Assembly: GCA_963665275.2 (NCBI GenBank)
Contig: CAXXIN010000016.1
Coordinates: forward strand, 224,001 to 288,000
Direction: 5' to 3'
Source: Negativicutes bacterium
GTDB lineage: Bacteria > Bacillota > Negativicutes > UBA1444
Length of the DNA: 64,000 bases
The translations under genes were made by a program, and so were the position numbers. A model generated the notes under the pieces. That model was not told the origin of the DNA. It did no database searches and saw nothing but the letters and a program-made list of their open reading frames with translations. Positions 11,445 through 36,213 of this stretch are shown here, piece by piece (position 1 is the stretch's first letter; each line of letters opens with the position of its first letter).

Positions 11445-11456
11445 TTGCCTTCAATT

Positions 11457-16277: not shown

Positions 16278-16300
16278 AATAAACTCTCCTCACACTCAAA

Positions 16301-18361: not shown

Positions 18362-18741
18362 CAATTATTACATTATTGGCTTCGCTCCGATCCCCTCACG
18401 TTCGCTCTCCAGCCCGTCACATTTCGTGGCGGGCTTTCGTTTTTTGCCGCCTTCCGGGCGATACCAACCGCACCCAATGGAAACAGCACTGGGATTTGCC
18501 GCCGGGTTGCGCTACTGAATTCCCATAGTTTTTTCCCATGATGCCATGCGTGGCCGTCTGAAGCTGTTGAAAATACTTCTTTCTGTTTGTTTTGGAAATG
18601 GAATACCGGTTCAATGGAATCAATTGTTTGCATGAGGAAAGCCTCCTTTGCTTTTTATGCCGCTTAGTTACCCTCTCTCTATGGCATGTTATAATATAAA
18701 TAATTGAGCGAATCCTGCGCCGCAGGAGGAGGAATGAGCGA

Positions 18742-19476: not shown

Positions 19477-19551
19477 ACACAAACTCCCACATCCCATTGC
19501 CTACACTCTGCTACAATCGTGGCAGAGCTTTCTTTTGGGAGGAAATGAAGA

Positions 19552-20430: not shown

Positions 20431-20448
20431 CAAGTGGTTTTCCCTGCC

Positions 20449-20661
20449 GGGGTCGCCTCTGCGGTTTTATCTGAATTAGAGAAACATGCCGTTTAGAATG
20501 ATGTGTTGCTTCTATCGACTCACGCCTCAATCACTTCCAAACCGTTTTTTGCAGCAAAGGGTTATTGGGTTGTAAGAGAACAACAAATCGAACGAGAAGA
20601 CCAAGTATTAACGAATTTTGTCATGGAAAAGCATCTCCAATCATCCGCAGCTTTTTTTTGA
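20449..20661 (+). pseudogene. GNAT acetyltransferase C-terminal remnant (YafP-like), not in the ORF track
   Basis: Translates GVASAVLSELEKHAV*NDVLLLSTHASITSKPFFAAKGY..EQQIER...LTNFVMEK; internal stop, no N-terminus. Confidence 0.75.
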
Positions 20662-21481
20662 ATCACAAACTCTATTGATTCGCAGCCCGGACCCTCCGGG
20701 CTGTTTTTATTTGCCCATCTTCCCGGCCAGCGCCAACACTGAGAAACTGGAAAAGCTTTCGCCCCGTACCGTGTTGATGCTGCATCACTTCTTGAAATCA
20801 AGCTTGCAGCAAGCCGTAGAGGATGCAGTCCTTTACCGCAACCCGGCAGGGCCCCTCAAGCGCCCACGGATGAAGGCGAAAGCCGATAAGTTCTTGGAAA
20901 CGGCGACTGTGCGCAAGCTGCTGCAAGACGCCAAAGGCTACCAGAAAACACTACTGCTGCTTGCCTGGACATCAGGCATGCGCCGCGAAGAAATCTTAGG
21001 GCTTTGTTGGTCAGACTTCAAAGCAGGGAATATCACGGTACGTCGTTCCGTGAAAAAAGGTCGGATTTTATCAACGGAACATAAAACGCCGTCCGCATAC
21101 CGGACGATTCCGCTACCGGCAGAAACCATCCGGGCACTGGCGGACAAAGAAAAAGACAAACCCCAAGTAGTCAATATGACTACTCCGGATTTGATCTTTC
21201 CGGCTGAAGACGGCAAACCCATCGAACTGATGGTATTGACCCGGTATTTTTCCAGACTTTGCAAACGCTGCAAAGTTGCAGCGACGCTTCACGATCTCAG
21301 GCATACTTACGCAACCAATCTTGCTATCGCTGGCGTGCATCCCGCTAGGGCCCAATATCTGCTCGGGCATTCCAAAGCCCAAATGACCCTGAACTGCTAC
21401 ACTCATATTCGCGGTGGCGATATGACGGGGATCGCAGAAATCGTGGAAAAATCAATGGTAGTCAAGGCAGTAGTCAAATGA
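20618..21481 (+). pseudogene. Tyrosine recombinase/integrase, 5'-truncated (catalytic domain intact)
   Basis: GMRREE, LHDLRHTYA, LGHS, T...Y.H catalytic residues. Integrase-like sequence starts only near 20740; arm-binding domain absent. Confidence 0.88.
21458..21477 (+). repeat. Integrase arm-type repeat pair GTAGTCAA (12-bp period)
   Basis: GTAGTCAA at 21458 and 21470. Confidence 0.7.
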
Positions 21482-21546
21482 CCGCTTGAACGGCACCGTC
21501 CGGATAAAAAGAAAAACGCCACAGTAACTGCAGCGTCTAACGTTTG

Positions 21547-21591
21547 CTTGGTGGGGGCATACTGGTTTCGAACCAGTGACCTCTTGAATGT
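21547..21591 (-). repeat. att core: duplicate of the tRNA-Val 3' half
   Basis: CTTGGTGGGGGCATACTGGTTTCGAACCAGTGACCTCTTGAATGT matches 36047-36090 apart from one extra G in the G run. Confidence 0.95.
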
Positions 21592-21974
21592 AAGTTGCCC
21601 AATATTGCGAAGATGAGTGGAGACTTTTCAGTAACAGCAGGAATTCTCACGATTTAGGGCAAGATGCATTCGGATGATTCCGGAACCCATTTTTAGAAAA
21701 ATTTTTAGAAGGATTTTGCGCACTTTCACATCATCACGTATCTGAAAAGTTGTATCCGGTCCGGATAGCACCACCATAATTAAAAAGTTTCATGGAAGCT
21801 CAATTTATGAAATTGATCTTCCATTTTTTTGTTTGGCGAGACCGTTCGCGACCGCTTGAAGGTGTGAGAGGTATCTGGGCATTGGGGGGTGAAAACCTGC
21901 AACTGTTCAACGAAAGTAAAAACAGAGGATAACCTCAGAAAAATAAGGCTTTCTGACAAGTTTAACCGTAATAT

Positions 21975-22028
21975 TTGACTACCGCTAAAAATTGTCTGAT
22001 CAACAAAAGTAGTCAGTGCGGTAGTCAA
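21975..22028. repeat. Integrase arm-type repeats (GTAGTCA[A/G])
   Basis: Inverted TTGACTAC at 21975; direct GTAGTCAG at 22009 and GTAGTCAA at 22021 (12-bp period). Confidence 0.7.
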
Positions 22029-22310
22029 AATCGCCGGGATTGAACTAGCCCCGGAAGATTCTTTGAATCGCCGCGACCCTGGGTCAATCCATCCCGTTTT
22101 ATTTCATCGTCGCAGAAATGAGGAGAGAAGAAAAAAGTAAAGGGCAGAAACAGCACAAAAAATATTTTGATTGCTGTATTTTTACGCCGCGCTCAGGCAT
22201 TCAAGAAATAAATTTTAATATTAGCAGGGAATGGAAAAATGAAAGAGAATTCATGAGGTAAATTATTCTTGTTAATGTCGATTATTAAATTTATTGGAGG
22301 AAGATACTTT

Positions 22311-23810
22311 ATGGGAGCGAATTTTCGAATTTTACATTTTTCAGATTTGCATTTTTCTAATGGGCGTGATTGTCAGGCTAGTAATCACAGCCATTCCATA
22401 GATATGTGCTCTGCAATTTCTAGCTTTGTCAAAAACAATAATGATTTCGATAAAGTAATAATATCAGGAGATATCTCAGATGGTGGCGATAGAGAAAGTC
22501 TACTTACGGCCCATGACTGGATCATGCATGATATGGGTATAGGAGCCAAAGAACGGATTGGATTACGCTTAAATGATAATCCTCAAAAATTAGGAATAGT
22601 CCCAGGAAATCATGATGCTTGGAATAATAGATCGGGGGGAAAGCTGATAAGTCGGTGGCAAAAGTCATTGGAGAATTATAACAGTATTTTTTACTATACG
22701 CAGCTTGGATAAAGAGTTATCTTGTATATATGATTGGATCGAGAAAGATGGAGTAGGTGTCTTTATTGCATACGTAGATTCTTGCTATTTTGGTGACGAT
22801 GATAATAGTTTATCTGATGTTTCAGAAAGGGTCGCGAGAGGTAAATTGTCTTCTCAGCAGGCTAAAATTCTATTAAATTGGTATGATAGAGGACTTAAAG
22901 GTAAGTTGCAGAAGCCCAATGAAGAATTTATATCATCTAGCCTTTTCCGTTCAAGCTTGAAAATAGTAGTAATGCATCACTATCTTTTCGAACCGCAGGG
23001 GTTGAGTGAGGAAGGATATTTTTTAAAGATAAAAGATAAAAAAAATGTTTTTAGTAATATTGCTATGGCTGATTTTGACGTTTTGTTGTGTGGACACAGG
23101 CATATCGCTGATTCAAAAGAATCGAGCTATGGAGATCATTTCGACAGACGAGCAAGGAATCGTTATATGTTCAATTGCTTCCGTCGCTTAATGGGGATTG
23201 ATGCGTTGCCGTTACAATTTGATGACAAACAAGGAGTAAGATTAACTAAAAAATTATCGGCAGTGATCCAAATTTTATGGCGGAAGTTTAGGATGGAAAA
23301 GAGGCATAAAAACTTAGTGCAAAAATACCGCATGAGAATATAAACGATTGTTATACAGATGAATTAATTGAAGCTTTGAAGAAAGGGATTGCGAATCCAG
23401 CTGATTTTCGGCAGGAAATAAAGGAATGCTTTTTTCGACAGAGCGTTGAAATAACAGAAACTCTTGCAGATAGCGAACTTGAAGATTTGCAGATGCAATT
23501 ATATTCAAAATTTACTTCAGAAGAGAGAAAAAAATTGGCAAAAATGGCAGAAAAACTAAATAAATATATTAAGAAACTCAATTCACGACCATTCTTGCAA
23601 GTTATGGCAGGATCGGCAACGAAAGCGTCTCTTCGAAATGAAAGTGCTCGTTCTTTCAATGTATATGAAATTGATTATGATAAGATGGGCTTTAGGTTTT
23701 CAATTATACAATATGATTGGGAAGATAATAAGTTCAAAAATAGCAATACAAGAATTAATTTCAATTTTTTGGATAGCAGAAAACTTGTTTTGGAAGATGC
23801 GGAAGGCTAA
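22311..23810 (+). CDS. Calcineurin-like metallophosphoesterase, about 500 aa (two frameshifts)
   Basis: SDLH, SGDISD, PGNHD, MHH, LCGHRH and terminal AGSAT..SFNVYEI spread over ORFs 22269..22712, 22705..23343 and 23376..23810. Confidence 0.8.
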
Positions 23811-23919
23811 GATTATTGCACCAGACCAATTTGAATTGCGAAGACAAAGAGTTAAGAGGCTTTTCAGTAAAAGCAGTCCAAAGATTTGTCAGGGATTCAA
23901 ACATAACTACAGCGCTGCC

Positions 23920-24265
23920 CGCCAGCCCTCCCGCCCCTGGCACGTTTTTTTGCTGGCTACCGTAGCCGCTATCGGCCAAGGCGACAAGGGGAGGGCTCTT
24001 TTGCGACCGCCTGCGCAGTAGCTCGCATCATGGCACAATAACAAAGCGGCTAAAATTACGAAGAGGAAAAGCAAACTGCCTGCGGCATGAGCTTTTGCTC
24101 CTGTCTCGCGGCAGTTTTTCGTATTCCATCGTATTTTTTTTGAGCCCTCACTCGGTGTTTTTTCTATTTAATAAATTGCTGTTTCAAAGGCGGCGCGAGC
24201 GCTGAGAGGGAAGACCTCAGGCAAGAAAAAGGCGCTCTGGAGACCGCGCGCAGCGCCGCCATCAC
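23920..24265. other. GC-rich multi-hairpin non-coding element
   Basis: Three nested inverted-repeat blocks (23924-23996, 24057-24123, 24189-24260). Confidence 0.55.
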
Positions 24266-24290
24266 AGACAATCTTCCAGTGAAGGAATTA

Positions 24291-25379
24291 TTATTTCAGG
24301 GTAACACCATTTTCAGGCAGAAGCACATTGAGCATAAAATCTATATGTGCCATAACTGAATCATGAAATTGTTTCCAGTCACTCTTCATAAATTCGTTGC
24401 TCATCTCAAACACCTCGTTCGGTGTGTGCCTGATATCGTCCTTACCTAAAGCAATACTTTTCCATGATCCAGGCCCTGATGAAATATAGGGAATATTTAT
24501 TTTACCAAACCCGAACCAATCTTCACTCAACGCTTGCTGCCATAATTCGTGTCTTTTATCCGCATTGTAGTGCGCAAAGCGAAGAAATGAATCCTTGAAT
24601 GCATTATATACATAATCAGGTATAACCGGTATATTTCCGTTTACATCTGATGCTTGATAGCGTTTTAGCACTATCCATATATTGGACACTGCATCCATAA
24701 ATCGCTCTATATTATGGACTCGTCCCGATGAGTTTCCTTCTCTATCTATATATTCCCACTCTAAATAAGGAATATCTGGACAGTGCAATGCCGTCAAATG
24801 CCCCAATGGAAAACGATTCATGTTGGCCGAGATTAATCTATCTGCAATATCATCCAACGGAGAAACAATCTTCAAAAAGCTATTGCCGGACTCCGAATCA
24901 AAGATATCACGCAATACATTGAGAGGGCTTACTACACCCGCAAACCCTTGATGTGCCCATGTATCAGCATATGAATGCAAGGTGATCCCCAAACGGTGTA
25001 AACTCTTATTGCCATTATTTATGCACTCGGCTACCATTTTTTGTGCAATTTCACTGTTAGGTCTACAAATCATTCTTGCCCGATACTCATATTCAGTACC
25101 CGCAAACGATCCTGGGTTGTTGCCTGGCACGAAATGAAACGGCAACCATGTATGATTATTAACCGCCTCATCCAAATTTTCATAGAACTCTTTGTTATCT
25201 GTGCACGTGACTGATCTCATGTGATAGTATGACGGCGCATTTGAAAAATAAATGAATCCACCATGGGTAGCATCGTCAACGTATTGCGAACTGTATGCAA
25301 TGGTAAAAGCATCTTCATGAGAAAATTCAGCGTACCTCGCAAGAACGTAAATAACATCAAAATGAAAGTCCTTTTGCAT
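24291..25379 (-). CDS. DUF6765-like protein (putative Zn-dependent phospholipase C/P1-nuclease fold)
   Basis: MQKDFHF...SQYVDD, PFHF.P, LHSYADTWAHQGF, GH...PD.P. Confidence 0.7.
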   Translation of the reverse strand: MQKDFHFDVIYVLARYAEFSHEDAFTIAYSSQYVDDATHGGFIYFSNAPSYYHMRSVTCTDNKEFYENLDEAVNNHTWLPFHFVPGNNPGSFAGTEYEYRARMICRPNSEIAQKMVAECINNGNKSLHRLGITLHSYADTWAHQGFAGVVSPLNVLRDIFDSESGNSFLKIVSPLDDIADRLISANMNRFPLGHLTALHCPDIPYLEWEYIDREGNSSGRVHNIERFMDAVSNIWIVLKRYQASDVNGNIPVIPDYVYNAFKDSFLRFAHYNADKRHELWQQALSEDWFGFGKINIPYISSGPGSWKSIALGKDDIRHTPNEVFEMSNEFMKSDWKQFHDSVMAHIDFMLNVLLPENGVTLK

Positions 25380-25661
25380 TTAATTTGCTCCCTTCTATAT
25401 TATTTGGTATCCACCCTTGTCATTTTCGCTGTCTTTTGCTTCTTGGCTTCACTAGAGTCCATTAACATGTAGACAGTCAGTTAATTTATAAAAAAGACCT
25501 CAGTGAAAAACACTGAAGCCCAAAAGTCTTTTAGGTTTTCAACACAAGACACGCTGTTTCATTATCAAAACTCAATTTGATCTATAGAACACAATTGAAA
25601 ACACATGGGGGGGAACCGGCATTGCGATTCTACTCAGTGATAGCTTCAGCAGTTTTGCCCA

Positions 25662-26012
25662 TTACCCAACAATTTGCATAATAAAATCTTTCCATTTTGT
25701 AAAAGTCTCAATTAGGGTCGGAGTAGTATTAATCGTTTGCATTGCCGAACCAATTCCAGCAAGAATTCCATGAACGCTTAATTTATTGCACCCTTCAGAT
25801 TTTACTTGTTCGGCAACCTGTGTCACCGCCGAAGAAATCTCGTTTTTCTTTTCACCTGGAGCGTTAGCAGATTGTATTATTTTGAGAAGCTCTTGCGTAA
25901 TATCTATCAGTTGCTGCTCTTGTCTATTATCGTTTATAACATTATCAGAGCCCAAACTCATATTTCCTTTGTTGCCGGTAACTGTTACTCCACCGAAATT
26001 ATTATTTGTCAT
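25662..26012 (-). CDS. Hypothetical protein: Gly/Asn-rich N-terminus plus helical bundle (frame open upstream to the A9 run at 26162-26170)
   Basis: Probable start MTNNNFGG with a GGGGG RBS; alternative GTG start at 26135 overlaps the upstream stop. Confidence 0.7.
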   Translation of the reverse strand: MTNNNFGGVTVTGNKGNMSLGSDNVINDNRQEQQLIDITQELLKIIQSANAPGEKKNEISSAVTQVAEQVKSEGCNKLSVHGILAGIGSAMQTINTTPTLIETFTKWKDFIMQIVG

Positions 26013-26131
26013 AGCACAACCCCCAACCGCCGCAACCGGGCCATTAATAATAATCTGAACTCCGGGAAACCCTGCTAAGGTACGGACAACTCCATCAGAC
26101 AGTAACTCTGGGCAAGTGATCGGTACTGGAC

Positions 26132-26527
26132 TCACATCTGCAAAAGATTGGCCATTGGATGTTTTTTTTTACCCCCTTGTCCCGCCTGTTGTACTAACCG
26201 CTCTTTATAATCACGACAAACCTCGAAAACTGGAAATACAAGCTCGCCGGTTACGTCAATATCTTCACCACAAGCACATTCCATCACGATATCCGATAAA
26301 GACGGCATGCAATCAACGATTTCAACCGTCCGTGCACATCCGTCTCGTGGGCATCTTATCTCCCAGCGCAATTGAAGTTTACCATCTTTAGCAAGCTTCA
26401 ATAACCGTTCAAAGACATCAGACAAAGGTAAACCCGTAAGTTTAGCCACATACGTCGGATAGAAACGAACAATTCTTGACGCAGCAATATCATCAACAGC
26501 ATCATCGATATCCCACTGTATTGTCAT
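26132..26527 (-). CDS. Hypothetical protein: winged-helix-like N-terminus plus Zn ribbon
   Basis: RFYP..VAK.TG.PL..VF..L; CP..GC and C.CG; GGAGGTGA RBS. Confidence 0.8.
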   Translation of the reverse strand: MTIQWDIDDAVDDIAASRIVRFYPTYVAKLTGLPLSDVFERLLKLAKDGKLQLRWEIRCPRDGCARTVEIVDCMPSLSDIVMECACGEDIDVTGELVFPVFEVCRDYKERLVQQAGQGGKKKHPMANLLQM

Positions 26528-26558
26528 TCACGGTCACCTCCGATGCACAATTTTCCCA

Positions 26559-27650
26559 TTATAAAATTATAACATTTTCCCGGACATACTTAACCGCTTT
26601 TTCAGTTGCTGACGTAAGAAATTGAATGCTATTTGTTGTAACCCCAACTCGAATCGTACAGTTTTCTGCAAACGGAATTTCGCCAATCGAAAAATTGATG
26701 TATCCGCCTTGTTGTTGCACGTGTGGCTTTAAATAATTAAAGAAAGCATGGTCTCGTAAATCGCTTTTACCCCCAAGGCCAACTTTTTCGAGCCCACTTA
26801 AAAACATTGTGGTAAATAATGTCCCCTGCGCTAAATCCAATTCCTGTTTTGCGGCTTGAAGGTTTCCTTCTAAAGAACGAATATCATCATCAAGAAAATA
26901 GGCATCAATTGCTGTAATGATCGCAATCAGATTTTTTGTTTCCTGGCCAGAAATATCTCCAATATTTGTTTCTGGCTTTGAAGTCGATTCGGTAAGTATT
27001 CCACCCAGCTTGTCTGCAATTGCACCAATATTCTTTCCATCTTTATCAACAATGTTCCGGGGGGTTATTGCAGTGTGTTGTTCAATCATTCCTGCTATCG
27101 TTGAGGCAAATTTTTTTGCAGAATTTGCCTCCGTTCTTATTTCAATGCAATTACTATCTTCATTCATATATACGGTTACAACTTTGGTAATCGGAATCAC
27201 TTCTCGCTGACTTCCAGAGAATTTGTTTATCGTCCCGATTTTATGAACAAACCGCAAATAATATTCTTCTTTTGACTGCCCCTCAATTGCCGATATCAAT
27301 ATTGGACTTTCAGTTATTTTTCCGGTGTCCGGCATCACTGCCTTTGAGAAAGGATTGAAGCGGGCTTTAGCCAATATTTTTTCTCTTGATCCCTTTAATG
27401 TTGCTCCGCCTTCGAGGTAATACCAAGTAACTGAGGTTTTCCCGCACAACGCCATTTCTTCATATTCTTTTAGGACAGCCTCTTTTCTATTTTTGTTTTC
27501 GCGAAGGAAGGCCCATATCCGCCCGCTCAATTCGGACTGCAAACCCTTTGGAGACAATTTTAATTCATTGCATATATCGACAAGGCTCTTTTTTGATAGG
27601 CGCTGCAAATCACTTTCGAGAATAGCCTCGGCTATTTTCAACAGAATCAA
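26559..27650 (-). CDS. Hypothetical protein with N-terminal SAP-like DNA-binding motif
   Basis: 363 aa; LSKKSLVDICNELKLSPKGLQSELSGRI fits the SAP pattern; AGGAG RBS. Confidence 0.75.
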   Translation of the reverse strand: MILLKIAEAILESDLQRLSKKSLVDICNELKLSPKGLQSELSGRIWAFLRENKNRKEAVLKEYEEMALCGKTSVTWYYLEGGATLKGSREKILAKARFNPFSKAVMPDTGKITESPILISAIEGQSKEEYYLRFVHKIGTINKFSGSQREVIPITKVVTVYMNEDSNCIEIRTEANSAKKFASTIAGMIEQHTAITPRNIVDKDGKNIGAIADKLGGILTESTSKPETNIGDISGQETKNLIAIITAIDAYFLDDDIRSLEGNLQAAKQELDLAQGTLFTTMFLSGLEKVGLGGKSDLRDHAFFNYLKPHVQQQGGYINFSIGEIPFAENCTIRVGVTTNSIQFLTSATEKAVKYVRENVIIL

Positions 27651-27852
27651 CTCCTGGTTATTTAATTTCCATTCATACTTTTCGTTTTCGTCTTATGATT
27701 TTCATTTATTTTCAAAAAATTATATTACATCAGATTATCCTTGCAGGAGGCGACACATGTATAGCCTACCGAGGCGATCCCGCAGGGTAAATCCTCTCGC
27801 GCTTCGCCACCCAGAGCAGATTGTATCAGGGTGTTTCCCTGTATTTTTTTGA

Positions 27853-27896
27853 TTTTCGCCACCATCAAAAAGTTCACAATTTGTTCGCTTTACATG
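27853..27896 (+). repeat. About 45-bp imperfect direct repeat, copy 1
   Basis: TTTTCGCCACCATCAAAAAGTTCACAATTTGTTCGCTTTACATG, preceded by a hairpin and T run. Confidence 0.8.
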
Positions 27897-27922
27897 GGGT
27901 GTCTCATCGACCATGATCAATC

Positions 27923-29125
27923 TTATGGCACGATTTTTATTATCAGATCTGTCGTCTTAACCCATGCATATACCCTGTTATCGCCTCGAATAAAATCTGA
28001 AGAGGTTTTTAATTTCTCAAGAGAATTTAGGGATTTCAGCAGGTTAGTTAGATGGTAGGTATTCTCAGGACTTTCTTCAGAGCTTTCTCGGAGCTGGCTT
28101 TCGATGGTGTTTTTGAGCGTTTGTTCAAGCCACACATAATCTTTCATTTTTATTTTTTCCATAGCGGCAACAAAGATTGCCTGTTTGTCATCAGTATGTC
28201 CCAGTTGATACACCACACCTCTTATTATTGCCATATAACGAATATAGGGCGGAAGGCCAATGTTGCTGCTAACTTGAAAGCAATAAAACGAGGCCTTAAA
28301 ATAGTTAGGGGGGGATTGATTTAAAGCAGCGTCAATTTCTTTTTTGGCGGAGCTAGCTTCGTAAATTGCAAATGCCTTGGGGAAGCTTGGAGAAACGCAG
28401 ATTAATTGTTGTGCTGTAATGAAAATAATAATTGAATAGGTTACTATCTTAATTATTATTTTGGGTTTAATTACGGTTTGTAGCTGTAGCCCGATGCAAA
28501 ATACTCTTGTCCATAGTATCAAAGAAACCATATAGAAAAGCATCTTAACAAATAATAATGGGCCGAAGTACCTAATAAGTGCGAAAATGAATGTGCTTAC
28601 TAAATCATCTTGGGACATTGATTGGTCGGGGTTGAGAAGCGGTTTTTCGAAGAGCCAATGTTCAATAGGGCTATAAATAAAGCTGTCTAGAAACGTCAAG
28701 GGAACAAGCAATCCGCTAGCGTAGAAGAATGATCTAAAAAGTTTCTGGTATTGCCACTGCCATTTTACCAATCTCCGACTCACAAGTTGCAGTATAAGTA
28801 TAAAAATAATAAAACCAGCAAAGAACAATAAAGGCTCAAAGAACAGCGTGTCCAGAGTAATAGGGGTCTTAATAGTTATAGCGGACAAGGTGTCCTTTAT
28901 TTTTTCGGTTTTTATAAAAGAACTCACAGCAGAAGAAAAAATGACATTTAAAACAAAGAAAAAAACAGGCGTAACAACATAGAAAGAAGGGTTGTTCAAA
29001 AGAAACTGCAGGGTCTTTTGTGGGGAAAAAGTTATTCTCTTGATTAAGATACAATAATCGATGATAGCTTGAATAAGCACTTCTGTTTTCTTAAGAATTC
29101 GATCTTCATAGGACACGCGATACAC
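27923..29125 (-). CDS. Hypothetical multi-TM membrane protein (Yip1-like N-terminal half, soluble C-terminus)
   Basis: 400 aa; about five hydrophobic helices followed by a helical soluble domain. Confidence 0.7.
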   Translation of the reverse strand: MYRVSYEDRILKKTEVLIQAIIDYCILIKRITFSPQKTLQFLLNNPSFYVVTPVFFFVLNVIFSSAVSSFIKTEKIKDTLSAITIKTPITLDTLFFEPLLFFAGFIIFILILQLVSRRLVKWQWQYQKLFRSFFYASGLLVPLTFLDSFIYSPIEHWLFEKPLLNPDQSMSQDDLVSTFIFALIRYFGPLLFVKMLFYMVSLILWTRVFCIGLQLQTVIKPKIIIKIVTYSIIIFITAQQLICVSPSFPKAFAIYEASSAKKEIDAALNQSPPNYFKASFYCFQVSSNIGLPPYIRYMAIIRGVVYQLGHTDDKQAIFVAAMEKIKMKDYVWLEQTLKNTIESQLRESSEESPENTYHLTNLLKSLNSLEKLKTSSDFIRGDNRVYAWVKTTDLIIKIVP

Positions 29126-29148
29126 CTCTCTGAAATTGATTTGTTTCT

Positions 29149-30423
29149 TTAATTATTGGGATAGGGAAGTATTTTATAATAATGTACAGGCAAATACTTC
29201 TCAATCTTTTTGAGAAAATCTAAGTAGGAGAAAGTTGCATTTGTTACCTCAATATGACTATCAAGCATTTTGCTGAAGTCATTATTCATTTTTATTTTTA
29301 ATTCATGTATATCTATTTGATGTTCATTTATTACTATTTTTCTTACTAGCTGCATTACTTTAGTAGCATCACTTGTAGGAGCTTCGAGGCTTTTACGCTT
29401 TGTAATTGATAGGTTTTCATAATCTAAGGAAGAGATGATAGTCAGTGTTTTATCATAATCATCTAGGAAATCGTTATATTGAGTATATGTTTCTATATTC
29501 TTATGAAGGAAATATCTATTTTTATTAAACATAGATTGATTAAGCTTCTTCTCTAACTTGTCGATATTTTTGCCTACCTTGGAGTTTTCCTTTTCTTTGT
29601 CCAACTTCCACATATATAAAAGTTGTTGTATTCTATTCGTAGCAAGAAAAAACTCCGCTTCACTTGAAATAGATGGTTCGCTTTTAATATAGGAGAGAAT
29701 TGAATTAACTGGTTCCTCAATTTGCTTATATTTTGAATGAGCAGAATTCACTATTGCGTTTGCATTATTGGTCTCATTGAAACATTCTAAGGTATAGAAC
29801 TCTGATGCGATTGGGTCTTCAAAAGCCATCAGTATATGTTTGGGGATATGAATATTTATATCGAAGTATGAAACCATAAATACAAGGACTATTCCAGTTG
29901 CTACAATCGTTAATCCACTAAGTACTTGCTTAAGCCTACTTTGAAAAAATAGCAAAACAAACTTGCCGACAAGAAAGAAAATAAAAACAATGATTGACAC
30001 TTCATATAAGAAATAAAAGAAATAACTTTCAGTATGAATGAAAGCTGATAACATAAGCAGCGGGATACTTCCGGTTATTGTCTGTTGGAAAACTACATAA
30101 TTCAAGCACACTTTTATCTTATTACCAAAATTTGAAAACAACATGGCTATAAGATACCCGAGCGACATAATCGGTAATTGAAACAATAGTAATCGTGCAT
30201 TAGCAATCAAGGAGTAGTCAAACGTAGGATTTTCAGATAAGAAGTATGTTTGTATTATGATAAAAAAAGCTATATATATGATTAATCTGTATGCATTAGC
30301 AATGAAGTTCTCATGTATTATTTTTTCAAAATACTTATTTCCATCCAGATAAAAAAGCAAGACATCATGTATAAATTTATTAACTTCAGCGAGGAGCTCA
30401 CGTGTTATTTTAAAAAAATCCAT
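29149..30423 (-). CDS. Hypothetical multi-TM membrane protein with coiled-coil C-terminus
   Basis: 424 aa; about five TM helices then a Lys/Asn-rich helical region; very AT-rich. Confidence 0.7.
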   Translation of the reverse strand: MDFFKITRELLAEVNKFIHDVLLFYLDGNKYFEKIIHENFIANAYRLIIYIAFFIIIQTYFLSENPTFDYSLIANARLLLFQLPIMSLGYLIAMLFSNFGNKIKVCLNYVVFQQTITGSIPLLMLSAFIHTESYFFYFLYEVSIIVFIFFLVGKFVLLFFQSRLKQVLSGLTIVATGIVLVFMVSYFDINIHIPKHILMAFEDPIASEFYTLECFNETNNANAIVNSAHSKYKQIEEPVNSILSYIKSEPSISSEAEFFLATNRIQQLLYMWKLDKEKENSKVGKNIDKLEKKLNQSMFNKNRYFLHKNIETYTQYNDFLDDYDKTLTIISSLDYENLSITKRKSLEAPTSDATKVMQLVRKIVINEHQIDIHELKIKMNNDFSKMLDSHIEVTNATFSYLDFLKKIEKYLPVHYYKILPYPNN

Positions 30424-30702
30424 ACTTTCCCCCTACTCACAATCTTTCAATATATTGTCTTGTTGCAATTATTATAAAAGATTCCGATTCCTGATTTTGA
30501 AAATCGTCAAGCTATATAGTTCTGTCAATTCACAAAATAACCTGCAATTTGTCCAATGAGTCGCAATTTTTTTGTTTTCTATGCCACCAGTTTCGTGAAA
30601 AATAGAAACGCCTTAAAACGGGGTTCGCAGAATCCGTTTTAAGGCCTGTTAAATAGCTTCCGAATGTTAAAGTACCGGGCAGTTTGCCCGGTGCTTTTCT
30701 GG

Positions 30703-30747
30703 TTTTCGCCACCATCAATAATTTAACAATTTGTTCGCTGTCACATG
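30703..30747 (+). repeat. About 45-bp imperfect direct repeat, copy 2
   Basis: TTTTCGCCACCATCAATAATTTAACAATTTGTTCGCTGTCACATG, preceded by a hairpin and T run. Confidence 0.8.
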
Positions 30748-30762
30748 ATGCAATCCATCAGC

Positions 30763-30789
30763 TATACTACAAATACAAACGTACGTTCG
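30763..30789 (+). promoter_or_regulatory. LexA/DinR SOS box downstream of a -10 element
   Basis: CAAACGTACGTTCG (30776-30789) has one mismatch to CGAACRNRYGTTCG; TATACT at 30763. Confidence 0.8.
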
Positions 30790-30819
30790 ATTAACGACGC
30801 AATAAGCGTGGGGGGAAAG

Positions 30820-30879
30820 GTGCGGACTATTCTGCATTGTGACTTGAATAATTTTTACGCCGTATCTTTTTTCAGATGA
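30820..30879 (+). pseudogene. dinB: First 14 codons of a Y-family DNA polymerase (DinB/UmuC)
   Basis: GTG start, then RTILHCDLNNFYA (Y-family motif I), five unrelated codons and a stop. Confidence 0.85.
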
Positions 30880-30905
30880 GCGGAAACGAGAGGAGACAGG
30901 TTGCA

Positions 30906-31538
30906 ATGAAAACGGTTTATATCTATGTGCAGGACACATTGGCGGATTGGGAAGCCGGTTACGCCATGGCGGAGCTTCATTCCGGCCGCTTTTTTCGGCT
31001 GGCGGCGGCGCCTTTGCGCCTAAAGACCTGCGCTCTGTCACGGGAACTGGTAACGACGATGGGAGGACTGCGGCTTTTACCGGACCTTACTGTCGACGAA
31101 ATTTGCCTGATCGATGCAGCCATGCTGATCCTGCCCGGGGGAGACGGCTGGCTGAATCTGCAAAACGAAATGATTTTGGAAAAAGCTGCGGCTTTTTTGG
31201 CCGCCGAAATTCCGGTGGCGGCGATCTGCGCGGCGACAGTGGCTCTGGGACGGGTCGGCCTGCTCAACCACCATCGCCACACAAGCAACGATTTGGAGTT
31301 TCTGCGAATGGCCTGCGGCGATTCTTACATCGGATCGGCTCTGTACGTAAAGCAGCCAGCCGTGATGGACGGCAATCTGATTACCGCTGCCGGGACTGCG
31401 CCGTTGGAGTTTGCTTGCCGGATTTTTGAGCGGCTGGATGTGTTTTCCCCGGCGACACTGGATGCCTGGTACTTGCTGCACAAGGAAAAGCAGCCGGAGT
31501 ATTACGATGTGCTGGTGGCGTCACTGCCGCTGCGCTGA
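30906..31538 (+). CDS. DJ-1/PfpI family (type 1 GATase-like, YdeA-like) protein
   Basis: ADWE, LILPGG, AAICAA, LITA.G. Confidence 0.92.
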   Translation: MKTVYIYVQDTLADWEAGYAMAELHSGRFFRLAAAPLRLKTCALSRELVTTMGGLRLLPDLTVDEICLIDAAMLILPGGDGWLNLQNEMILEKAAAFLAAEIPVAAICAATVALGRVGLLNHHRHTSNDLEFLRMACGDSYIGSALYVKQPAVMDGNLITAAGTAPLEFACRIFERLDVFSPATLDAWYLLHKEKQPEYYDVLVASLPLR

Positions 31539-31552
31539 GGGGGCGAGCGAAG

Positions 31553-31783
31553 ATGGGCAAGACGTTTGTGAGAGTGACGGCAGAACATGACCCGAGCGGG
31601 AAGACGAAACCTCTGTGGTTGAATTGGACCGACGGAAAGCAGTATGAGATCGACCGGGTAACGGATGTGAGGCAAGCACCATCGTTGAAGGGCGGCGGGT
31701 TGGGGATGCGGTATACGGTGAAGATCCGGGGGAAAGAAGTGTATTTGTTTGAGGACGAGGGACGATGGTTTGTGGAGGGGTGA
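31553..31783 (+). CDS. Small hypothetical protein typically found downstream of clostridial Y-family polymerases
   Basis: G...P....W.DG..YEIDRV.DVR.A.SLK.GG.G.RY..I.G....LF.....WFVE pattern. Confidence 0.75.
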   Translation: MGKTFVRVTAEHDPSGKTKPLWLNWTDGKQYEIDRVTDVRQAPSLKGGGLGMRYTVKIRGKEVYLFEDEGRWFVEG

Positions 31784-31890
31784 CCTGATGAAACTGGCAA
31801 GAGTACTGCAATAAAAAAAATCTGGCAGGTAATTGGAAACCGGAAGACGAAGAAATAGAAGAACATTTTTTTTCGAAAGGGCTAAGGGAT

Positions 31891-32238
31891 TTGAACGAGC
31901 AGAGCAGTCAAAAAGAAACAACTGACAAAGAAATTCAAAGTCAACTACGGGGATTGGTATTGTGGGAACTTGTATTCGATGGTGTCATAAGTTATCGCGA
32001 TACTGTGGAACGAACACATGGGATACAGTTCGAAATACGTTCAAAAGAGCAAGGACACAATGTTCCTCATTGCCATGCTTGTTATGGGAATCAGAACGTC
32101 TCCATATCGCTTCTCGATTTTTCAATATTAGCAGGAAATATTCCGTCGCAGAAGGCAAAATTTGCAGCGCGTTGGGTAAGAGATAACATTGATATCCTAA
32201 AACCATACTGGAACAAATATCACGCATTGGAAGTATAG
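31891..32238 (+). CDS. DUF4160-domain protein (orphan toxin-like)
   Basis: EQGHNVPHCHA.Y, I.L....ILAG.IP, W...N...L...W. Confidence 0.75.
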   Translation: MNEQSSQKETTDKEIQSQLRGLVLWELVFDGVISYRDTVERTHGIQFEIRSKEQGHNVPHCHACYGNQNVSISLLDFSILAGNIPSQKAKFAARWVRDNIDILKPYWNKYHALEV

Positions 32239-32424
32239 ATACGAAGTGTTTTCCTCAAACCAGAACTAAAACTGAAATAAGAGGAGACTGCTTAACCCAA
32301 CTTTTGGAATTAATATTCTGAGTGTGCAGGAGTCTAGCCGTTAAAGCATAATATAAGCTATGAAGTAATATTTTGTGAAGCATTAAAGCTGTTAATGTAA
32401 ATTTATGTAAGATAAGGAGTTTGC

Positions 32425-34591
32425 ATGAGCCAAAAGACACGACTGTTGATTCTAATCCTCTACATGGGTATTTTGTTGGCAGCGAACTCCATTGCATTTC
32501 ACCAGATATTGCCGATCAATGGAGCCAAGGGATTATGGTTTTACTCTGGATTCGCAAGCCTGCTGTTGGGAAACTTGCTTGTAACTCCATATTTCACCAA
32601 ACCTGTAGACGCGATATCATATGCGGTCGTTGCCATGATTGCTCTTTATTCCGTGAATGATTGGGACAAATGGATTTGGGTAGATCAGTTTGTATTCAGT
32701 GCCGTGATGCTATTCTCTCTTGCAGTTGCCGTCATTGGATTTATTACTATACTTACAAAAGACAACGAAACACATAGAGGCCGGGAGTGGTCAAATACTT
32801 TCCGGATTATATCTGATTTTATTGGCAATGAAACGGTTGTTTTTAGCAGCATAATACTTTTTGCGTTGATCGTTTTTCATCGACAATCAGCTTTGGAAAT
32901 GTTTGTTATAACTATGGCTTGGGTAATAACAGTTATAATAAAACCAGACCGACATTTTGGAGAATTGTTTGATCGATTAAAAAAAATATGGCAAGATACA
33001 TTTTCTTCTGACATTATTGGAGATGTTGCGGCATACCAAACCCCAAACATTGCTCTAGTTCGGCAACGCAGCAATAATTCAGTGCAGTTTGGAGAAGCGG
33101 TAATTTTTCGCGATCCACATGCACCAACAAAGGTCGGAGTAGCACTAGACTATGTTGGACGTGATGAATCGTTATTGCTACGCACTATGGTATTCGACGT
33201 TCCCGATTCCTGTAGCGAAACGGTTTCGGTTGCATGCAAATTAATCCCGGAAAATACCATGGGACGTTGTGCTCAACTGCTTTCAAATTCTACAGTTAGA
33301 GAATCGATACCAATCTTTAACCAATTACAGGATTTTGTTGGAATTGTTACAACGGAAACGTCGATTGATACCCTTTATTTTGAAGTAGTAAAAGAGGCAA
33401 ATCTCGAAGAGGGTAAGTTAGTTCAAGTTTCTATTAAGGGGAGAACCGGTACTCTATCAGGTTATTGAAGGGTTTACCAAAGAAGAGGTCGTTTTCCAGA
33501 AAAACACATTTGGTTTTGCTCGTGCCAAAGCGCAAAAAATCGGTGCATGGGATGAACGCGAAAAGAAATTCAATCCAGCTAAATGGATTCCAAGTATTAA
33601 TGCGCCGGTTTTTTTGAGAAGCATGGAAACGCGTGAAATCGATATTGCAGCAATAGGACATTTCCCTGGATCAAGTTACAATGTCCGAATCAAGAGTGTT
33701 AGCCATTTGGTTACGCACAACACCGCAATTTTAGGAATTTTAGGCGTCGGAAAATCTATGTTATCCATCGAGCTGGTGGAAAGAATGATTGCCGAGGATG
33801 TTAAGGTAATTTGTTTAGATCTAACCAATCAATATGCACAAGAACTAGTTGATTTCTATGACGCAACAGGTGAAGAAGAGAAGGAAAGAAACCTTGACAC
33901 CATAGGAATGGCAGGGGAGCGTGCAGTTAATCAAAACGTAGAAAACGGAGGTAGCATAAAACAATTTGCTGCTGCAATCGAATTAGATCTTAGGGAATTT
34001 ATCCTGGAATCTCCCAACACGTTGAAAATATATAATCCTGCTAGGTTCACTGTGTGGCGTCAAAGTGGCGGACTTTACCAAGGAAATGCGGCTATGGCGA
34101 GCCTGACTCCCACAGAAATCACCAAGATAGTATCTGAAGCGGCTTTGAAAATTGCTCAAGACTTGGGAATGACAGATAGAGCACGGATATGCTTAGTGTA
34201 TGAAGAGGCACATTCTTTAGTGCCCGAATGGAATTCTGTTGCAGCCGATGGTGATCGTGCAGCTACGAATGGTACTGCCAGAGCCATATTGCAAGGACGC
34301 AAATATGGGCTTGGTTGTTTATTAATAACACAACGAACTGCTAACGTAACGAAAACAATTTTAAATCAATGCAATACGATATTTGCTATGCGTACCTTTG
34401 ATGAAACTGGGAAGGATTTTTTGGCTAATTATATTGGGAACAATTACTCCAGCGTTTTGTCTTCTTTACAAGAGCGACACGCTGTGTTTTTTGGAAAAGC
34501 ATCAAGTTGTGATAATCCAGTTCTTATAAGGCTCAATGACAGAGGCGATTTTATAAGAGTTTTTCGGAAATCCAAGTCTCCTAACTATTAA
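32425..34591 (+). CDS. Membrane-anchored HerA-like (DUF87) ATPase, about 720 aa (extra G near 33440)
   Basis: About six N-terminal TM helices, HAS-barrel-like segment (LEEG.LV...VLYQV), Walker A GILGVGKS, Walker B VYEEAH, GRKYG and TQR motifs. Confidence 0.85.
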
Positions 34592-34740
34592 CATAATTGA
34601 ATAACCAGATTAAGAATATTGGTTGGATAATTTGAAAGTGAAGACGTTTGGAGTGCAAAGGGAACATAATTTACTATGAGCACTCTTGATTGTTCAAGAT
34701 TATCAAATAAATCTCTTAAATCATTTTAAGGATGTGAACT

Positions 34741-35817
34741 ATGGATAAGCAATCATCCATAATCGGGCTCTCAATTGTTTTGAACCGTGGTTTGAAAACA
34801 GAGCAAGAAACTGCATGTTTTGAAAATGTAACTCATGATATTTTGGTTGAAGGAATAAAGGAATATCTTTTACTTCATGCTAATTTGTTAGGAGACATGC
34901 ATATCGAAACATCTCAGGCATTGAATGATCATGGCGTGGATTTGATCTTAACGTCAAATCAAGTATGTAAAATTGGCATTCAAGTAAAAAGTCACTTTGA
35001 CGTTTCTGAAAAAGATTTTGCTACAAAAGTTAAACGTCAATATGCAGAATCTTTGGCACATGGTTTGGATAAATGGTATTTATTGATCTGTGCTCCTATG
35101 AAATCTGGGAAAAATGATTTTTCCGGAAAAATTAATCATCTTATAAATGAATTGAGCATGTTTAAAACCAAATATCACTGCGTTTTTGGCCCCCAATATA
35201 CTGCTGAAATTTACAAGAATTTTCAACCTATGAGCATAGATGAATTTAATTATTCATTACAAAAATACTCTTATGCGCAAACTGATATTGAAGCAATAAA
35301 AGAACTTATAAAAAATAATTTAAATTCAAGCCCAAAGGAGAATAGGGATAATTTTTCTTATAACGTAGATCCCTACAAGGCCATTGCACCTCAAAGTTGT
35401 AATGGAATTAATAAGGTTTTAGATTGGGGAAATTCAGAAGAAGAACTTAAGTGTGCAAAAAAGGATTTTATTGTATTATTAAATGTTTTGCAAAAAATTC
35501 CATTAAATACAAGGAAGTTCCTATCAATGGCGATAGAAAAGGCTGTTTTAAAGGGTGATAATCTGCATGCTTTAATATTTGAAATTCGTAATTCATGCAA
35601 TATTAGCGAAAAAGAATTTAGCGATCATGCGAAGTTACTTGAAAAATATCGGCTTATGGAACTAGATGGTGATGATTATGACTACATATTCATAAACAAT
35701 GGATCAATTAGGTGGCCCATTATGAAGGATTTAATAGTTTTTGCGGAAAGACAACATATTCCGATTGATCAAATAATTGTATGTTTAAATTTTGGTTTTC
35801 TAGACAAAATACAATAG
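34741..35817 (+). CDS. PD-(D/E)XK restriction-endonuclease-like protein with C-terminal helical/wHTH domain
   Basis: DHGVDLIL...IGIQVKS Mrr-type active site; the C-terminus (...IIVCLNFGFLD) resembles that of SMEK-domain proteins. Confidence 0.7.
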   Translation: MDKQSSIIGLSIVLNRGLKTEQETACFENVTHDILVEGIKEYLLLHANLLGDMHIETSQALNDHGVDLILTSNQVCKIGIQVKSHFDVSEKDFATKVKRQYAESLAHGLDKWYLLICAPMKSGKNDFSGKINHLINELSMFKTKYHCVFGPQYTAEIYKNFQPMSIDEFNYSLQKYSYAQTDIEAIKELIKNNLNSSPKENRDNFSYNVDPYKAIAPQSCNGINKVLDWGNSEEELKCAKKDFIVLLNVLQKIPLNTRKFLSMAIEKAVLKGDNLHALIFEIRNSCNISEKEFSDHAKLLEKYRLMELDGDDYDYIFINNGSIRWPIMKDLIVFAERQHIPIDQIIVCLNFGFLDKIQ

Positions 35818-35978
35818 CCCCAGTGGGGTCGCATCATGTTATCAAACTTCTCAGTGTCCATTCGACTGTCAATGCTAGTCAACTTCATAGAAGGTTGCCG
35901 AAAAGCCCCAAAATTAAGCTTATAATCTGTTTGCGGTCTATGAATCCGATGATTTGAAAATGAGCAATTTTTGAACTG

Positions 35979-35997
35979 TCTGGGTGTTTATCTGGGT
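35979..35997 (+). repeat. Arm-type repeat pair TCTGGGT (12-bp period)
   Basis: TCTGGGT at 35979 and 35991, next to the tRNA 3' end. Confidence 0.55.
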
Positions 35998-36005
35998 ATA
36001 GACAG

Positions 36006-36040
36006 AAAAAAGGCTTCCGACGAAATCGTCGGAAGCCTTG
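36006..36040 (-). terminator. tRNA-Val terminator (inside the island end)
   Basis: Minus strand AAGGCTTCCGACG-loop-CGTCGGAAGCCTTTTTT. Confidence 0.85.
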
Positions 36041-36048
36041 ATTTACCT

Positions 36049-36123
36049 TGGTGGGGCATACTGGTTTCGAACCAGTGACCTCTTGAATGTGAGTCAAGCG
36101 CTCTCCCCCTGAGCTAATGCCCC
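36049..36123 (-). tRNA. tRNA-Val (anticodon CAC)
   Basis: GGGGCATTAGCTCAG...CTTGA-CTCACAT-TCAAG...GGTTCGAAACC...GCCCCACCA; promoter TTGAAT-17-TATAAT at 36142-36170. Confidence 0.97.
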
Positions 36124-36213
36124 AAGCTCTAGTGCTCTTACATTATACCTGCACTGGAAGCAGAATTCAACCTGTAGCGCAAGAACTGTAAAAACTAATA
36201 TTTTGGGGATGAA

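Follow-up and report, generated by a model that had tools for sequence, protein, structure and literature searches.

Among described systems, the locus analysed here most closely resembles the tRNA-associated islands and immune hotspots such as those of P2/P4 (PMC9122126), with which it shares a repeat of the 3' half of a tRNA, deviant G+C (GC) content and variable cargo, with a cyclic-oligonucleotide-based anti-phage signalling system (CBASS) and the candidate system PDC-M34 in equivalent slots. The locus is an AT-rich island adjoining the tRNA-Val(CAC) gene of a Negativicutes bacterium (GenBank assembly GCA_963665275.2, contig CAXXIN010000016.1); it lies in a stretch of 64,000 nucleotides (positions 224,001 to 288,000 of the contig), hereinafter the window, whose numbering is used throughout. 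It departs from the P2/P4-type hotspots in that the sole integrase is truncated and located outside the repeats, in that a genus-conserved core of normal GC content sits in the middle of the island, and in that its conserved non-coding end sequences, like a 76-aa gene, are found repeatedly in the same genome, at several loci. At the level of individual genes, a HerA-type ATPase of the island has in common with the SIR2-HerA (Nezha, Gao19) and DUF4297-HerA systems the HerA-clade ATPase domain, the HAS-type N-terminal beta-barrel and the Walker motifs, and a 358-aa protein encoded next to it is comparable to the Mrr-type (type IV) restriction endonucleases.

We interpret the island, with a probability of about 0.6, as horizontally acquired DNA at the 3' half of tRNA-Val(CAC) that was assembled in more than one event and carries independent candidate defence genes or operons in its cargo arms. 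An initial annotation, made without database searches, described an integrase-less tRNA-Val island that looked like a defence hotspot with no classical system and contained several separate, possibly undescribed defence modules; that interpretation is partly supported by the present analysis. The locus is a variable tRNA-linked cargo site without a classical system; one of its genes, at the minimum, is well supported as a candidate for defence, and two or three others are plausible candidates.

The boundaries of the island are formed by the following features:
36049-36123, minus strand: tRNA-Val(CAC) gene (ARAGORN; Rfam tRNA, 68.7 bits), whose own 3' half is the proximal repeat
21549-21593: distal direct repeat, a copy of the tRNA-Val 3' half
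36005-36048, minus strand: terminator-like hairpin just 3' of the tRNA, kept beside tRNA-Val in loci L024-L027 and L029
20618-21481, plus strand: 5'-truncated tyrosine integrase (Pfam Phage_integrase, 3.6e-24), outside the distal repeat

This tRNA gene is the sole one that ARAGORN detects in the window, and tRNA is the only RNA family with Rfam matches between 20000 and 37000. The 28-nt core of its 3' half is present in exactly 2 copies in the window, at 21564 and 36063, with no further copy at up to 3 mismatches; at the same tolerance, the whole 3.97-Mb genome contains 2 copies, and no match at all was obtained in 100 shuffles. The repeat family extends over 21543-21595 and 36042-36094, and once an extra base at 21553 is removed, the copies are identical over 44 consecutive nt. 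The outer coordinates of the initially annotated island coincide with these two copies, which bracket 14.5 kb of AT-rich DNA. The GC content is 0.52-0.60 on the right-hand side of the tRNA and falls by roughly 15 points in the island, to 0.31-0.43 at 22-31 kb and 32-36 kb; a patch of normal GC content (0.54) lies inside, at 31-32 kb.

The integrase gene stops 68 bp before the distal repeat, on its outer side. Of the 443-aa integrase from the corresponding island of a relative, G007, only residues 185-423 are covered by the alignment, and so the window integrase is considered truncated. Between the repeats, no integrase was found with Pfam or PHROGs, and tblastn with three integrases revealed no integrase remnant inside the island beside the distal repeat. 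Thus, the description of the island as integrase-less is accurate for the repeat-bounded DNA, which has no internal integrase, and has to be amended in that a truncated one abuts the distal repeat. With regard to the features by which tRNA islands are recognized, an intact tRNA accompanied by a repeat of its 3' part is present, as are deviant GC content and absence from relatives; an internal integrase of its own is missing. Because the integrase is missing or truncated, the island would now be fixed in place. No contig joining 21593 to 36049, the joint expected from excision or an empty site, was found in public-run contigs, which says little given that contigs break at repeats.

The DNA between the repeats was initially annotated as one single island and turns out to be a mosaic around a genus-conserved DJ-1/p76 core. 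The features relevant to this structure are:
21594-21786 and 21940-22096: non-coding end sequences LE1 and LE2, respectively, within 21594-22100
30703-30860, plus strand: Y-family polymerase (ImpB/UmuC) remnant, namely the 5' end and the upstream region
30876-31538, plus strand: DJ-1/PfpI protein (Pfam, 1.9e-26), GC-normal and genus-conserved
31553-31783, plus strand: p76, the multi-copy 76-aa gene that accompanies ImpB and variable cargo
27834-27889 (left) and 30684-30739 (right): 56-nt direct repeat, 84% identity, flanking two membrane-protein genes

When the island DNA was searched against 12 other genomes of the order, the matches were limited to the DJ-1/p76 patch (30867-31784, with 65-82% DNA identity in seven relatives), the non-coding end by the distal repeat and about 90 bp of the hairpin region, and no DNA match to the AT-rich cargo was detected in any of the 12. 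LE1 and LE2, which have no Rfam match, are found elsewhere in the window's own genome (G000), LE1 on contig C17 (178400-178632, 81% identity) and LE2 on C18 (262068-262218) and C6, as well as in five relatives (G003, G006, G007, G009 and G010). On C17 and on C14 of G007, LE1 directly follows a hairpin and the 3' fragment of another tRNA. The window's own genome has further copies of p76 on C18, C17, C6 and C3, and the gene is also present in G005, G007, G010, G011 and G014. Because 30703-30860 matches positions 11785-11939 of the C17 locus (L043), overlapping the start of a 412-aa ImpB gene, the GC-normal core is best described as a Y-family polymerase operon in which the polymerase was mostly replaced by DJ-1; in G007:C14, an N-terminal fragment of ImpB occupies the equivalent place. 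The order of the components is, accordingly, truncated integrase, repeat, LE1/LE2, left cargo arm, ImpB remnant, DJ-1, p76, right cargo arm, hairpin and tRNA, which would correspond to three kinds of layers, namely, an LE1/LE2 end by a displaced tRNA fragment, a GC-normal genus-conserved core and two AT-rich cargo arms. Most likely, this mosaic was built by several insertion events. Another dispersed repeat was observed in non-coding DNA at 23920-24262, between the phosphoesterase and DUF6765 genes of the left arm, which is 74% identical to G000:C14:77801-78140 and in part matches C18.

In each of the relatives examined (G007, G005, G014, G011 and G010), the content on the 3' side of tRNA-Val(CAC) is different, as follows:
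G007: 9.3-kb repeat-bounded island with a full integrase, a resolvase and DUF5343 plus HEPN_Swt1
G005: p76, then an AT-rich 518-aa gene of no recognised family
G014: DUF6904, ImpB and p76, followed further out by ParE and a nucleotidyltransferase
G011: HxlR and DJ-1
G010: M50 peptidase gene of housekeeping type, located some 240 bp away from the tRNA

The DUF5343 and HEPN_Swt1 proteins of G007 match the PADLOC candidate system PDC-M34A/B (3.7e-72 and 4.2e-71). The G007 island spans 4783-14237 of L024 (G007:C28), between direct repeats of about 86-89 nt that take in the hairpin, and its integrase sits inside the island, next to the distal repeat. G010, with its peptidase gene so close to the tRNA, is regarded as a genome without an island. 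On C17 of the window's own genome, a tRNA 3' fragment and LE1 are followed by a CD-NTase (PADLOC, 7.8e-163), a patatin effector (1.2e-102), a p76-like gene and ImpB. The CBASS at this locus (G000:C17:178400-183900, L043 6401-11940) is complete, consisting of the CD-NTase with an AGS_C domain, the patatin effector and a second SMODS protein, and the architecture of the locus agrees with that of the window island. On C18 (L044 8877-11918), an AT-rich open reading frame (ORF) of 1013 aa with a weak HSDR_N_2 match and no PADLOC match lies between p76 and LE2 and is another candidate cargo gene. A further tRNA-linked island, at G000:C6:19600-35000, combines tRNA-Leu(CAA), an integrase (283-aa ORF), p76 fragments, an LE2 copy and lowered GC content. 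Behind LE1 in G007:C14, there is metabolic cargo (GntR, DcuC and octopine dehydrogenase), so the contents of the cargo slot are not confined to defence genes. In the island, this variable slot corresponds to the cargo arms; its counterparts elsewhere in the genus and in the genome contain known or candidate defence systems. The proposal of a variable site is thus supported, with PDC-M34 at the same tRNA in G007 and CBASS at a same-end locus of the same genome.

In the island itself, there is no complete known defence system according to PADLOC, Pfam and NCBIfam. PADLOC was run on 18 ORFs with 2023 models, and the PADLOC and Pfam searches were performed on ORF pieces of at least 75 aa with artefactual frameshifts uncorrected. 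In these searches of the island ORF pieces, no signature proteins of CBASS, restriction-modification (RM), CRISPR-Cas (clustered regularly interspaced short palindromic repeats) or retrons were detected inside 21594-36048, which agrees with the initial failure to recognise any of these systems, no PADLOC model for them being assigned to any of the 18 ORFs. The gene content reported initially is confirmed as well and consists of a metallophosphoesterase, a DUF6765 protein, three small or medium genes without a recognised family, two membrane proteins, DJ-1/PfpI, the 76-aa gene, a DUF4160 protein, a HerA/DUF87 ATPase and the nuclease-like 358-aa gene.

Three frameshifts are apparent in these genes. 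The alignment of Logan contigs from four public runs (two studies) to 21400-36200 corrects this: single bases at 22687 and 33438 are missing from the contigs of all 4 runs, so these two frameshifts are assembly errors, and only the one at about 23300-23376 persists. Another single base, at 21553 in the distal repeat, is missing from the contigs of three of the 4 runs. All three are single-base homopolymer insertions in the window relative to the public short contigs, and the apparent breaks of the HerA and phosphoesterase genes fall at homopolymer runs. No indel was seen in any of the 4 runs at the second break of the phosphoesterase gene, nor at the p131/p157 junction in the left arm. With both bases removed, the HerA gene becomes one ORF of 721 codons and the phosphoesterase gene one of 357 codons ahead of the remaining frameshift. 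Most of the island genes are thus intact, two of the apparent breaks having arisen in the assembly. The public contigs also include, in runs X3 and X4, a form without 27899-30755, with a depth of 7.9 beside about 45 in X3; the joint, 27898 to 30756, has 6 other letters between, and the 2.86 kb with the two membrane-protein genes are gone, so this is a population variant or a close paralogous locus. In addition, one contig each in X2 and X3 joins 21998 (LE2 region) to 31779 (p76 end) on opposite strands, with a side of 48 nt, which could represent a cargo-less p76/LE2 locus or a paralogue; at the 90% likeness threshold used, another locus is possible.

The best candidate defence gene of the island is the following:
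32425-34591, plus strand: membrane-anchored HerA-type ATPase, one 721-codon ORF after removal of base 33438

The predicted protein contains the DUF87 domain (Pfam, 6.5e-8) and matches the PADLOC HerA models at up to 1.5e-24, over only about 115 residues of these 576-aa models. Intact homologues spanning both of the originally annotated gene pieces are encoded in an Aminobacter plasmid (713 aa) and an Arcobacter plasmid (765 aa). An exhaustive search yielded 385 cluster representatives at E <= 1e-30, mostly of about 710-765 aa, with the ATPase at approximately residues 340-725; of 400 further genomes that were sampled from the phylum, just 1 has a relative at the same threshold. The Walker A, Walker B and QGRK motifs are invariant in 23 sequences of the family, and the nearest solved structures by profile comparison are those of defence HerA proteins (8wiv, 3.4e-21; 9c1m, 3.8e-19; 8xau, 1.6e-16; also 8yho). 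The AlphaFold2 model of residues 1-338, built from 42 sequences (predicted local distance difference test, pLDDT, 90; predicted template modelling score, pTM, 0.73), consists of an eight-helix bundle followed by a beta-barrel. The modelled barrel aligns with the N-terminal barrels of HerA proteins at Z 7.5 (8wet, root-mean-square deviation, rmsd, 3.2 over 88 residues; 9c1m; 4d2i) and also with the barrels of F1-ATPase; for the helical bundle, the structure search returned generic helical-bundle rows and a weak NADPH-oxidase row, and no specific match.

The genomic neighbourhood of this family gives strong evidence for a role in defence. A metagenome scan yielded 543 relatives, the best 80 loci of which were kept; after removal of two near-duplicates (L055 and L069, of L054 and L068, respectively), 78 loci remained, and their 128 immediate upstream and downstream ORFs were scanned with Pfam. 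Among these best loci, 30 of the 78 have an RM or other defence domain in an immediate neighbour, and in 22 of the 30 there is a DNA methyltransferase or specificity subunit next door. The neighbours were distributed as follows, with two loci counted in two rows each, L066 (Eco57I-type methyltransferase and reverse transcriptase) and L109 (N6_N4 methyltransferase and AbiH):
8 loci: type I S or M subunit
7 loci: Eco57I/MmeI/TaqI_C-type methyltransferase
4 loci: N6_N4 methyltransferase
3 loci: DUF1156 methyltransferase
2 loci: HNH
2 loci: reverse transcriptase (RVT)
1 locus each: TIR, AbiGi, AbiH, Mrr, AAA_15, and a locus with ResIII/SNF2 only

Defence genes account for a small percentage of bacterial genes, so the proportion of 38%, obtained without a matched control, appears to be far above expectation. 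Moreover, both of the close plasmid homologues are found in a defence context: the Arcobacter gene is embedded in an operon of type I RM genes that adjoins a CBASS cyclase and a 2TM effector, and the Aminobacter gene lies beside AbiEi/AbiEii and two reverse transcriptase genes. As to the check on homologues that was suggested at the outset, namely whether they are enriched in defence neighbourhoods, these data point to such an enrichment for HerA; the relatives of the DUF6765 protein lie among metabolic genes. We consider the HerA family to be a variant of the known HerA kind that is not recognised as a system by current defence-finding models. Unlike SIR2-HerA and DUF4297-HerA, the island protein has neither a SIR2 nor a DUF4297 effector as a neighbour (PADLOC, Pfam), and neither is represented among the 128 neighbours of its relatives; it also differs in the roughly 190 residues of predicted membrane helices that precede the barrel in the model. 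No constant neighbour family exists in the 78 loci, the largest cluster comprising 18 proteins in 14 loci. Since no SIR2, DUF4297 or other constant partner was found, the membrane domain would have to be the effector if this is a defence protein. In a full-text literature search of main texts, no defence gene of the membrane-anchored HerA type was encountered.

Membrane helices at the N-terminus of an FtsK/HerA-type ATPase are also reminiscent of type IV coupling proteins, and the gene might accordingly encode a DNA-transfer pump from a conjugative element rather than an immune protein. There is a weak Pfam match to TrwB_AAD_bind (0.0038), and 177 of the 359 plasmid records with tblastn matches are typed as conjugative, with all but 2 below 60% identity and probably belonging to other DUF87 families. 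This origin is nevertheless very improbable, considering that relaxase, VirB4, TraG and other type IV secretion system domains of Pfam are present in none of the 128 neighbours at the 78 loci (E <= 1e-5), that the profile comparison places the protein nearest to the defence HerA structures, that the model includes a HerA-type N-terminal barrel, and that the island contains no transfer genes (Pfam, PHROGs).

The direct neighbours of the island HerA gene are the DUF4160 gene and the nuclease gene. The possibility that HerA and the nuclease constitute a two-gene system was rejected, given that tblastn detected a HerA relative at none of the 11 genome loci of the nuclease family and that this family is absent among the HerA neighbours, where there is only one, unrelated Mrr_cat gene. 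The nuclease is considered here in its own right:
34741-35817, plus strand: 358-aa protein with a putative N-terminal Mrr-like PD-(D/E)xK nuclease domain and a C-terminal winged helix

A search of 5.8 billion proteins retrieved 27 relatives, none of which has a Pfam domain on record, and the island protein itself has no match to Mrr_cat or any other Pfam family at E <= 0.01. Residues D67, Q81 and K83 are among the 28 invariant columns in 18 sequences of the family; the pattern D...QxK is a variant of the PD-(D/E)xK motif that is found in Mrr-type restriction endonucleases. In the AlphaFold2 model (pLDDT 85), the structural matches of the N-terminal domain are nuclease domains of restriction enzymes, namely those of LlaBIII (Z 8.5, with an rmsd of 4.1 for 125 aligned residues), PaqCI (8.3), BstEII (8.2) and EcoT38I (Foldseek E 8.6e-3), and those of the C-terminal domain are winged helices (Z 8-9.6). 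Apart from the invariant D67/Q81/K83 and the alignment of the N-terminal domain with the Mrr-like domain of LlaBIII and with type II/IIS endonucleases, the protein has in common with Mrr-type enzymes that it is encoded by a standalone gene in mobile contexts; it differs from them in that the winged helix is C-terminal, not N-terminal, and in the lack of a Pfam Mrr_cat match. The eleven genome loci of the family belong to Paenibacillus, Kouleothrix, Flavobacterium, Anaerospora, Prolixibacteraceae and Saprospira. Nine of these were examined (all but L016, the twin of L015, and the partial match L023), and six of the 9 (L013, L014, L015, L019, L020 and L021) have, within 5 kb, an integrase, IS200 transposase, serine recombinase, toxin-antitoxin gene, PLD nuclease or ResIII helicase; among the remaining loci, one has DUF4238 and one has housekeeping-like neighbours. 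This mobile-element context is suggestive of a defence gene. Conceivably, the winged helix would bind DNA and the Mrr-like PD-QxK nuclease would cut it, in the manner of a type IV restriction enzyme.

The left cargo arm contains an operon that is similarly suggestive:
26559-27650, minus strand: SAP363, the first gene, 363 aa with a SAP-like N-terminus
26132-26527, minus strand: p131, the second gene, encoding a Cys-rich protein
25662-26135, minus strand: p157, the third gene

SAP363 matches phrog_38742 (2.7e-32) and, below the cutoff, SAP_new25 (7.7e-5); only 2 relatives were found in the word-indexed search of 5.8 billion proteins, and the phage collection contained none. A gene of the Aneurinibacillus phage-plasmid pAT1 that is 41% identical to SAP363, located after lysis genes and near an Abi gene, is followed by one for a 292-aa fusion of p131 and p157; p131 is 46% identical to residues 1-118 of this protein, whereas p157 matches its C-terminal part and also a 153-aa gene in a viral contig (L131). 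In two IMG/VR contigs, L131 and L132, the gene directly after SAP363 is a homologue of p131, and another small gene comes third; the site is between replication genes and terminase in one of the contigs, and after endolysin in the other. Thus, the gene order is kept in all 4 known loci (the window, pAT1, L131 and L132), the last three of which are phage or phage-plasmid DNA. This phage context is suggestive of a defence candidate, and the operon might be an accessory module that is also carried by temperate phages.

The distribution of the SAP363 operon, otherwise seen only in two viral contigs and a phage-plasmid, also fits the notion that the entire island is a decayed temperate phage or integrative element whose leftover accessory, lysogenic-conversion or junk genes have no defence role. 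So do the truncation of the integrase, the presence of ImpB/p76-type modules and of a Bro-N fragment (16480-16725) that are typical of mobile elements, the genuine frameshift in the phosphoesterase gene and the population variant without the two membrane-protein genes. However, PHROGs revealed no structural, replication or lysis gene of phages in 16 island ORFs, the integrase alone receiving a functional label; two of the three apparent frameshifts are artefactual and most genes are intact; and the HerA family is absent from IMG/VR and is found beside RM genes. In addition, this scenario overlaps with the defence interpretation, given that phage accessory genes at such positions often are defence genes. 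On balance, we regard it as unlikely, albeit the least unlikely of the alternatives considered here.

The remaining cargo genes are the following:
22269-23343, plus strand: metallophosphoesterase, catalytic part (Pfam Metallophos, 1.1e-8), 357 codons after removal of base 22687
23376-23810, plus strand: C-terminal piece of the same phosphoesterase gene, split off by the persisting frameshift
24291-25379, minus strand: DUF6765 protein, 362 aa (Pfam DUF6765, 8.4e-85)
27923-29125, minus strand: membrane protein of 400 aa with five hydrophobic segments
29149-30423, minus strand: membrane protein of 424 aa with four hydrophobic segments and six relatives, all unnamed
31891-32238, plus strand: toxin-like DUF4160 protein, 115 aa (Pfam DUF4160, 1.2e-11)

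The catalytic motifs of the phosphoesterase are complete in the translation, and an intact 490-aa homologue, colinear with both window pieces, is encoded in a low-GC patch of a Ralstonia megaplasmid. The DUF6765 protein has no relative in the PDB by sequence. A conserved pair of phosphoesterase and DUF6765 was considered and rejected; the metallophosphoesterase next to DUF6765 in Ralstonia is not homologous to that of the window. The 400-aa membrane protein has no family match beyond a chance-level one in PADLOC, and no paralogy between the two membrane proteins was detected. The DUF4160 protein shares its domain with the type II toxin DhiT (NCBIfam NF048015), from which it differs in its sub-cutoff score, in an N-terminal extension of 40 residues and in the lack of an adjacent small antitoxin gene, there being no plus-strand ORF of at least 50 aa in 32238-32421 and no ORF in the 187-bp gap before HerA. 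We consider the orphan DUF4160 gene and the metallophosphoesterase to be other candidates for a role in defence; DUF6765, DJ-1 and p76 are probably not defence genes. Accordingly, the initial proposal of several separate undescribed defence modules stands in part: the neighbourhood evidence is strong for HerA and suggestive for the nuclease and SAP363, whereas the DUF6765 protein, the frameshifted phosphoesterase and the two membrane proteins, which have almost no relatives, do not sustain it.

Such genes bring up yet another explanation, under which the AT-rich arms are ordinary strain-specific accessory DNA at a recombination-prone tRNA, and the defence labels over-read P-loop, PD-(D/E)xK and metallophosphoesterase domains. 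DJ-1, DUF6765 and the phosphoesterase indeed have non-defence relatives, the same LE1 end precedes the metabolic cargo of G007:C14, and all matches to defence models are sub-threshold. The neighbourhood data for HerA (30 of the 78 loci), the CBASS and PDC-M34 systems in equivalent slots, and the patchy distribution of the HerA, nuclease and SAP363 families across phyla make us view this explanation as quite unlikely, even more so than that of a decayed element.

Several observations weigh against the interpretation of the island as a multi-event acquisition with independent candidate defence genes. None of the island modules reaches the curated threshold of any defence model. For HerA, the PADLOC matches are limited to the C-terminal third of the models; no relatives were found in IMG/VR viral contigs; 48 of the 78 loci, many of them on short contigs, have no defence neighbour, and the count lacks a matched control; and the island gene is not adjacent to an RM system. 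The fold scores of the nuclease (PD-(D/E)xK matches, Z 7.8-8.5) are in the middling range of the tool, and its family, too, was not found in IMG/VR viral contigs. The match of p157 to PDC-M14B in PADLOC is weak and partial (3.6e-7, profile positions 154-265 of 267), and the PDC-M14A component has no PADLOC match in the island, so that the pair is incomplete. The frameshift that persists in all 4 runs cuts off the C-terminal domain of the phosphoesterase. The phosphoesterase, searched as a 147-aa piece, scores 44.2 bits, against a cutoff of 420, with the anti-phage phosphoesterase DS9_1 (NCBIfam NF053862), and in the metallophosphoesterase domain only. The DUF4160 protein scores 44.5 bits with toxin_DhiT of NCBIfam, against a curated cutoff of 100, and the relatives of the DUF6765 protein, in 127 Ralstonia megaplasmids, lie amid metabolic genes. 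As for the insertion itself, the hairpin is kept in relatives, contrary to what a simple exchange between phage and bacterial attachment sites (attP/attB) predicts unless the element also carries the hairpin; the G007 element does carry it, as such an exchange would then need. The multi-event history is inferred, and no internal att remnants were found in the island.

A more specific version of the interpretation that we favour, which we put forward only tentatively and hold to be possible rather than probable, is that HerA is a self-contained single-protein anti-phage system of a novel type, with its own membrane effector, that backs up restriction, that the SAP363 operon and the 358-aa nuclease are two more, hitherto undescribed modules for defence, and that LE1/LE2, p76 and ImpB mark an integrase-poor family of cargo slots. 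Already under the general interpretation, HerA would act alone, as a hexameric motor that is anchored by the helical membrane bundle and engages invading DNA, and would then either block this DNA or trigger membrane damage; under the more specific version, the motor would sense this DNA, and the role of the SIR2 or nuclease partner would fall to the helical membrane domain. The frequent location of the family inside RM operons suggests that it might back up restriction, for example, by firing upon restriction evasion. The LE1/LE2 ends, p76 and ImpB would mark slots that shuffle modules within the genus. Should the HerA-family gene prove to protect against phage, this would mean that a membrane anchor can take the place of a separate effector for a HerA motor, and would name a large family (the 385 cluster representatives) that current models miss as a system. 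The recurring non-coding ends and the 76-aa gene offer a handle for finding more cargo slots and candidate systems in a poorly studied genus, and the artefactual frameshifts illustrate how genes that look like pseudogenes in a long-read assembly can in fact be intact candidates for a role in immunity.

Other genes of the window are split as well, namely XdhC (7440-8214), AMP-binding pieces (4649-5481), a truncated LysR (10833-11444) and TauE (38769-39134), and these may be similar assembly artefacts. To the left of the integrase, the region 8000-21500 has an intermediate GC content of 0.41-0.51 and encodes FMN reductases, TetR, DUF3999, DUF2339, a ceramidase-like protein, the Bro-N fragment mentioned above, a beta-lactamase-family protein, AraC and EamA; this region may be an older decayed island that was once home to the truncated integrase.

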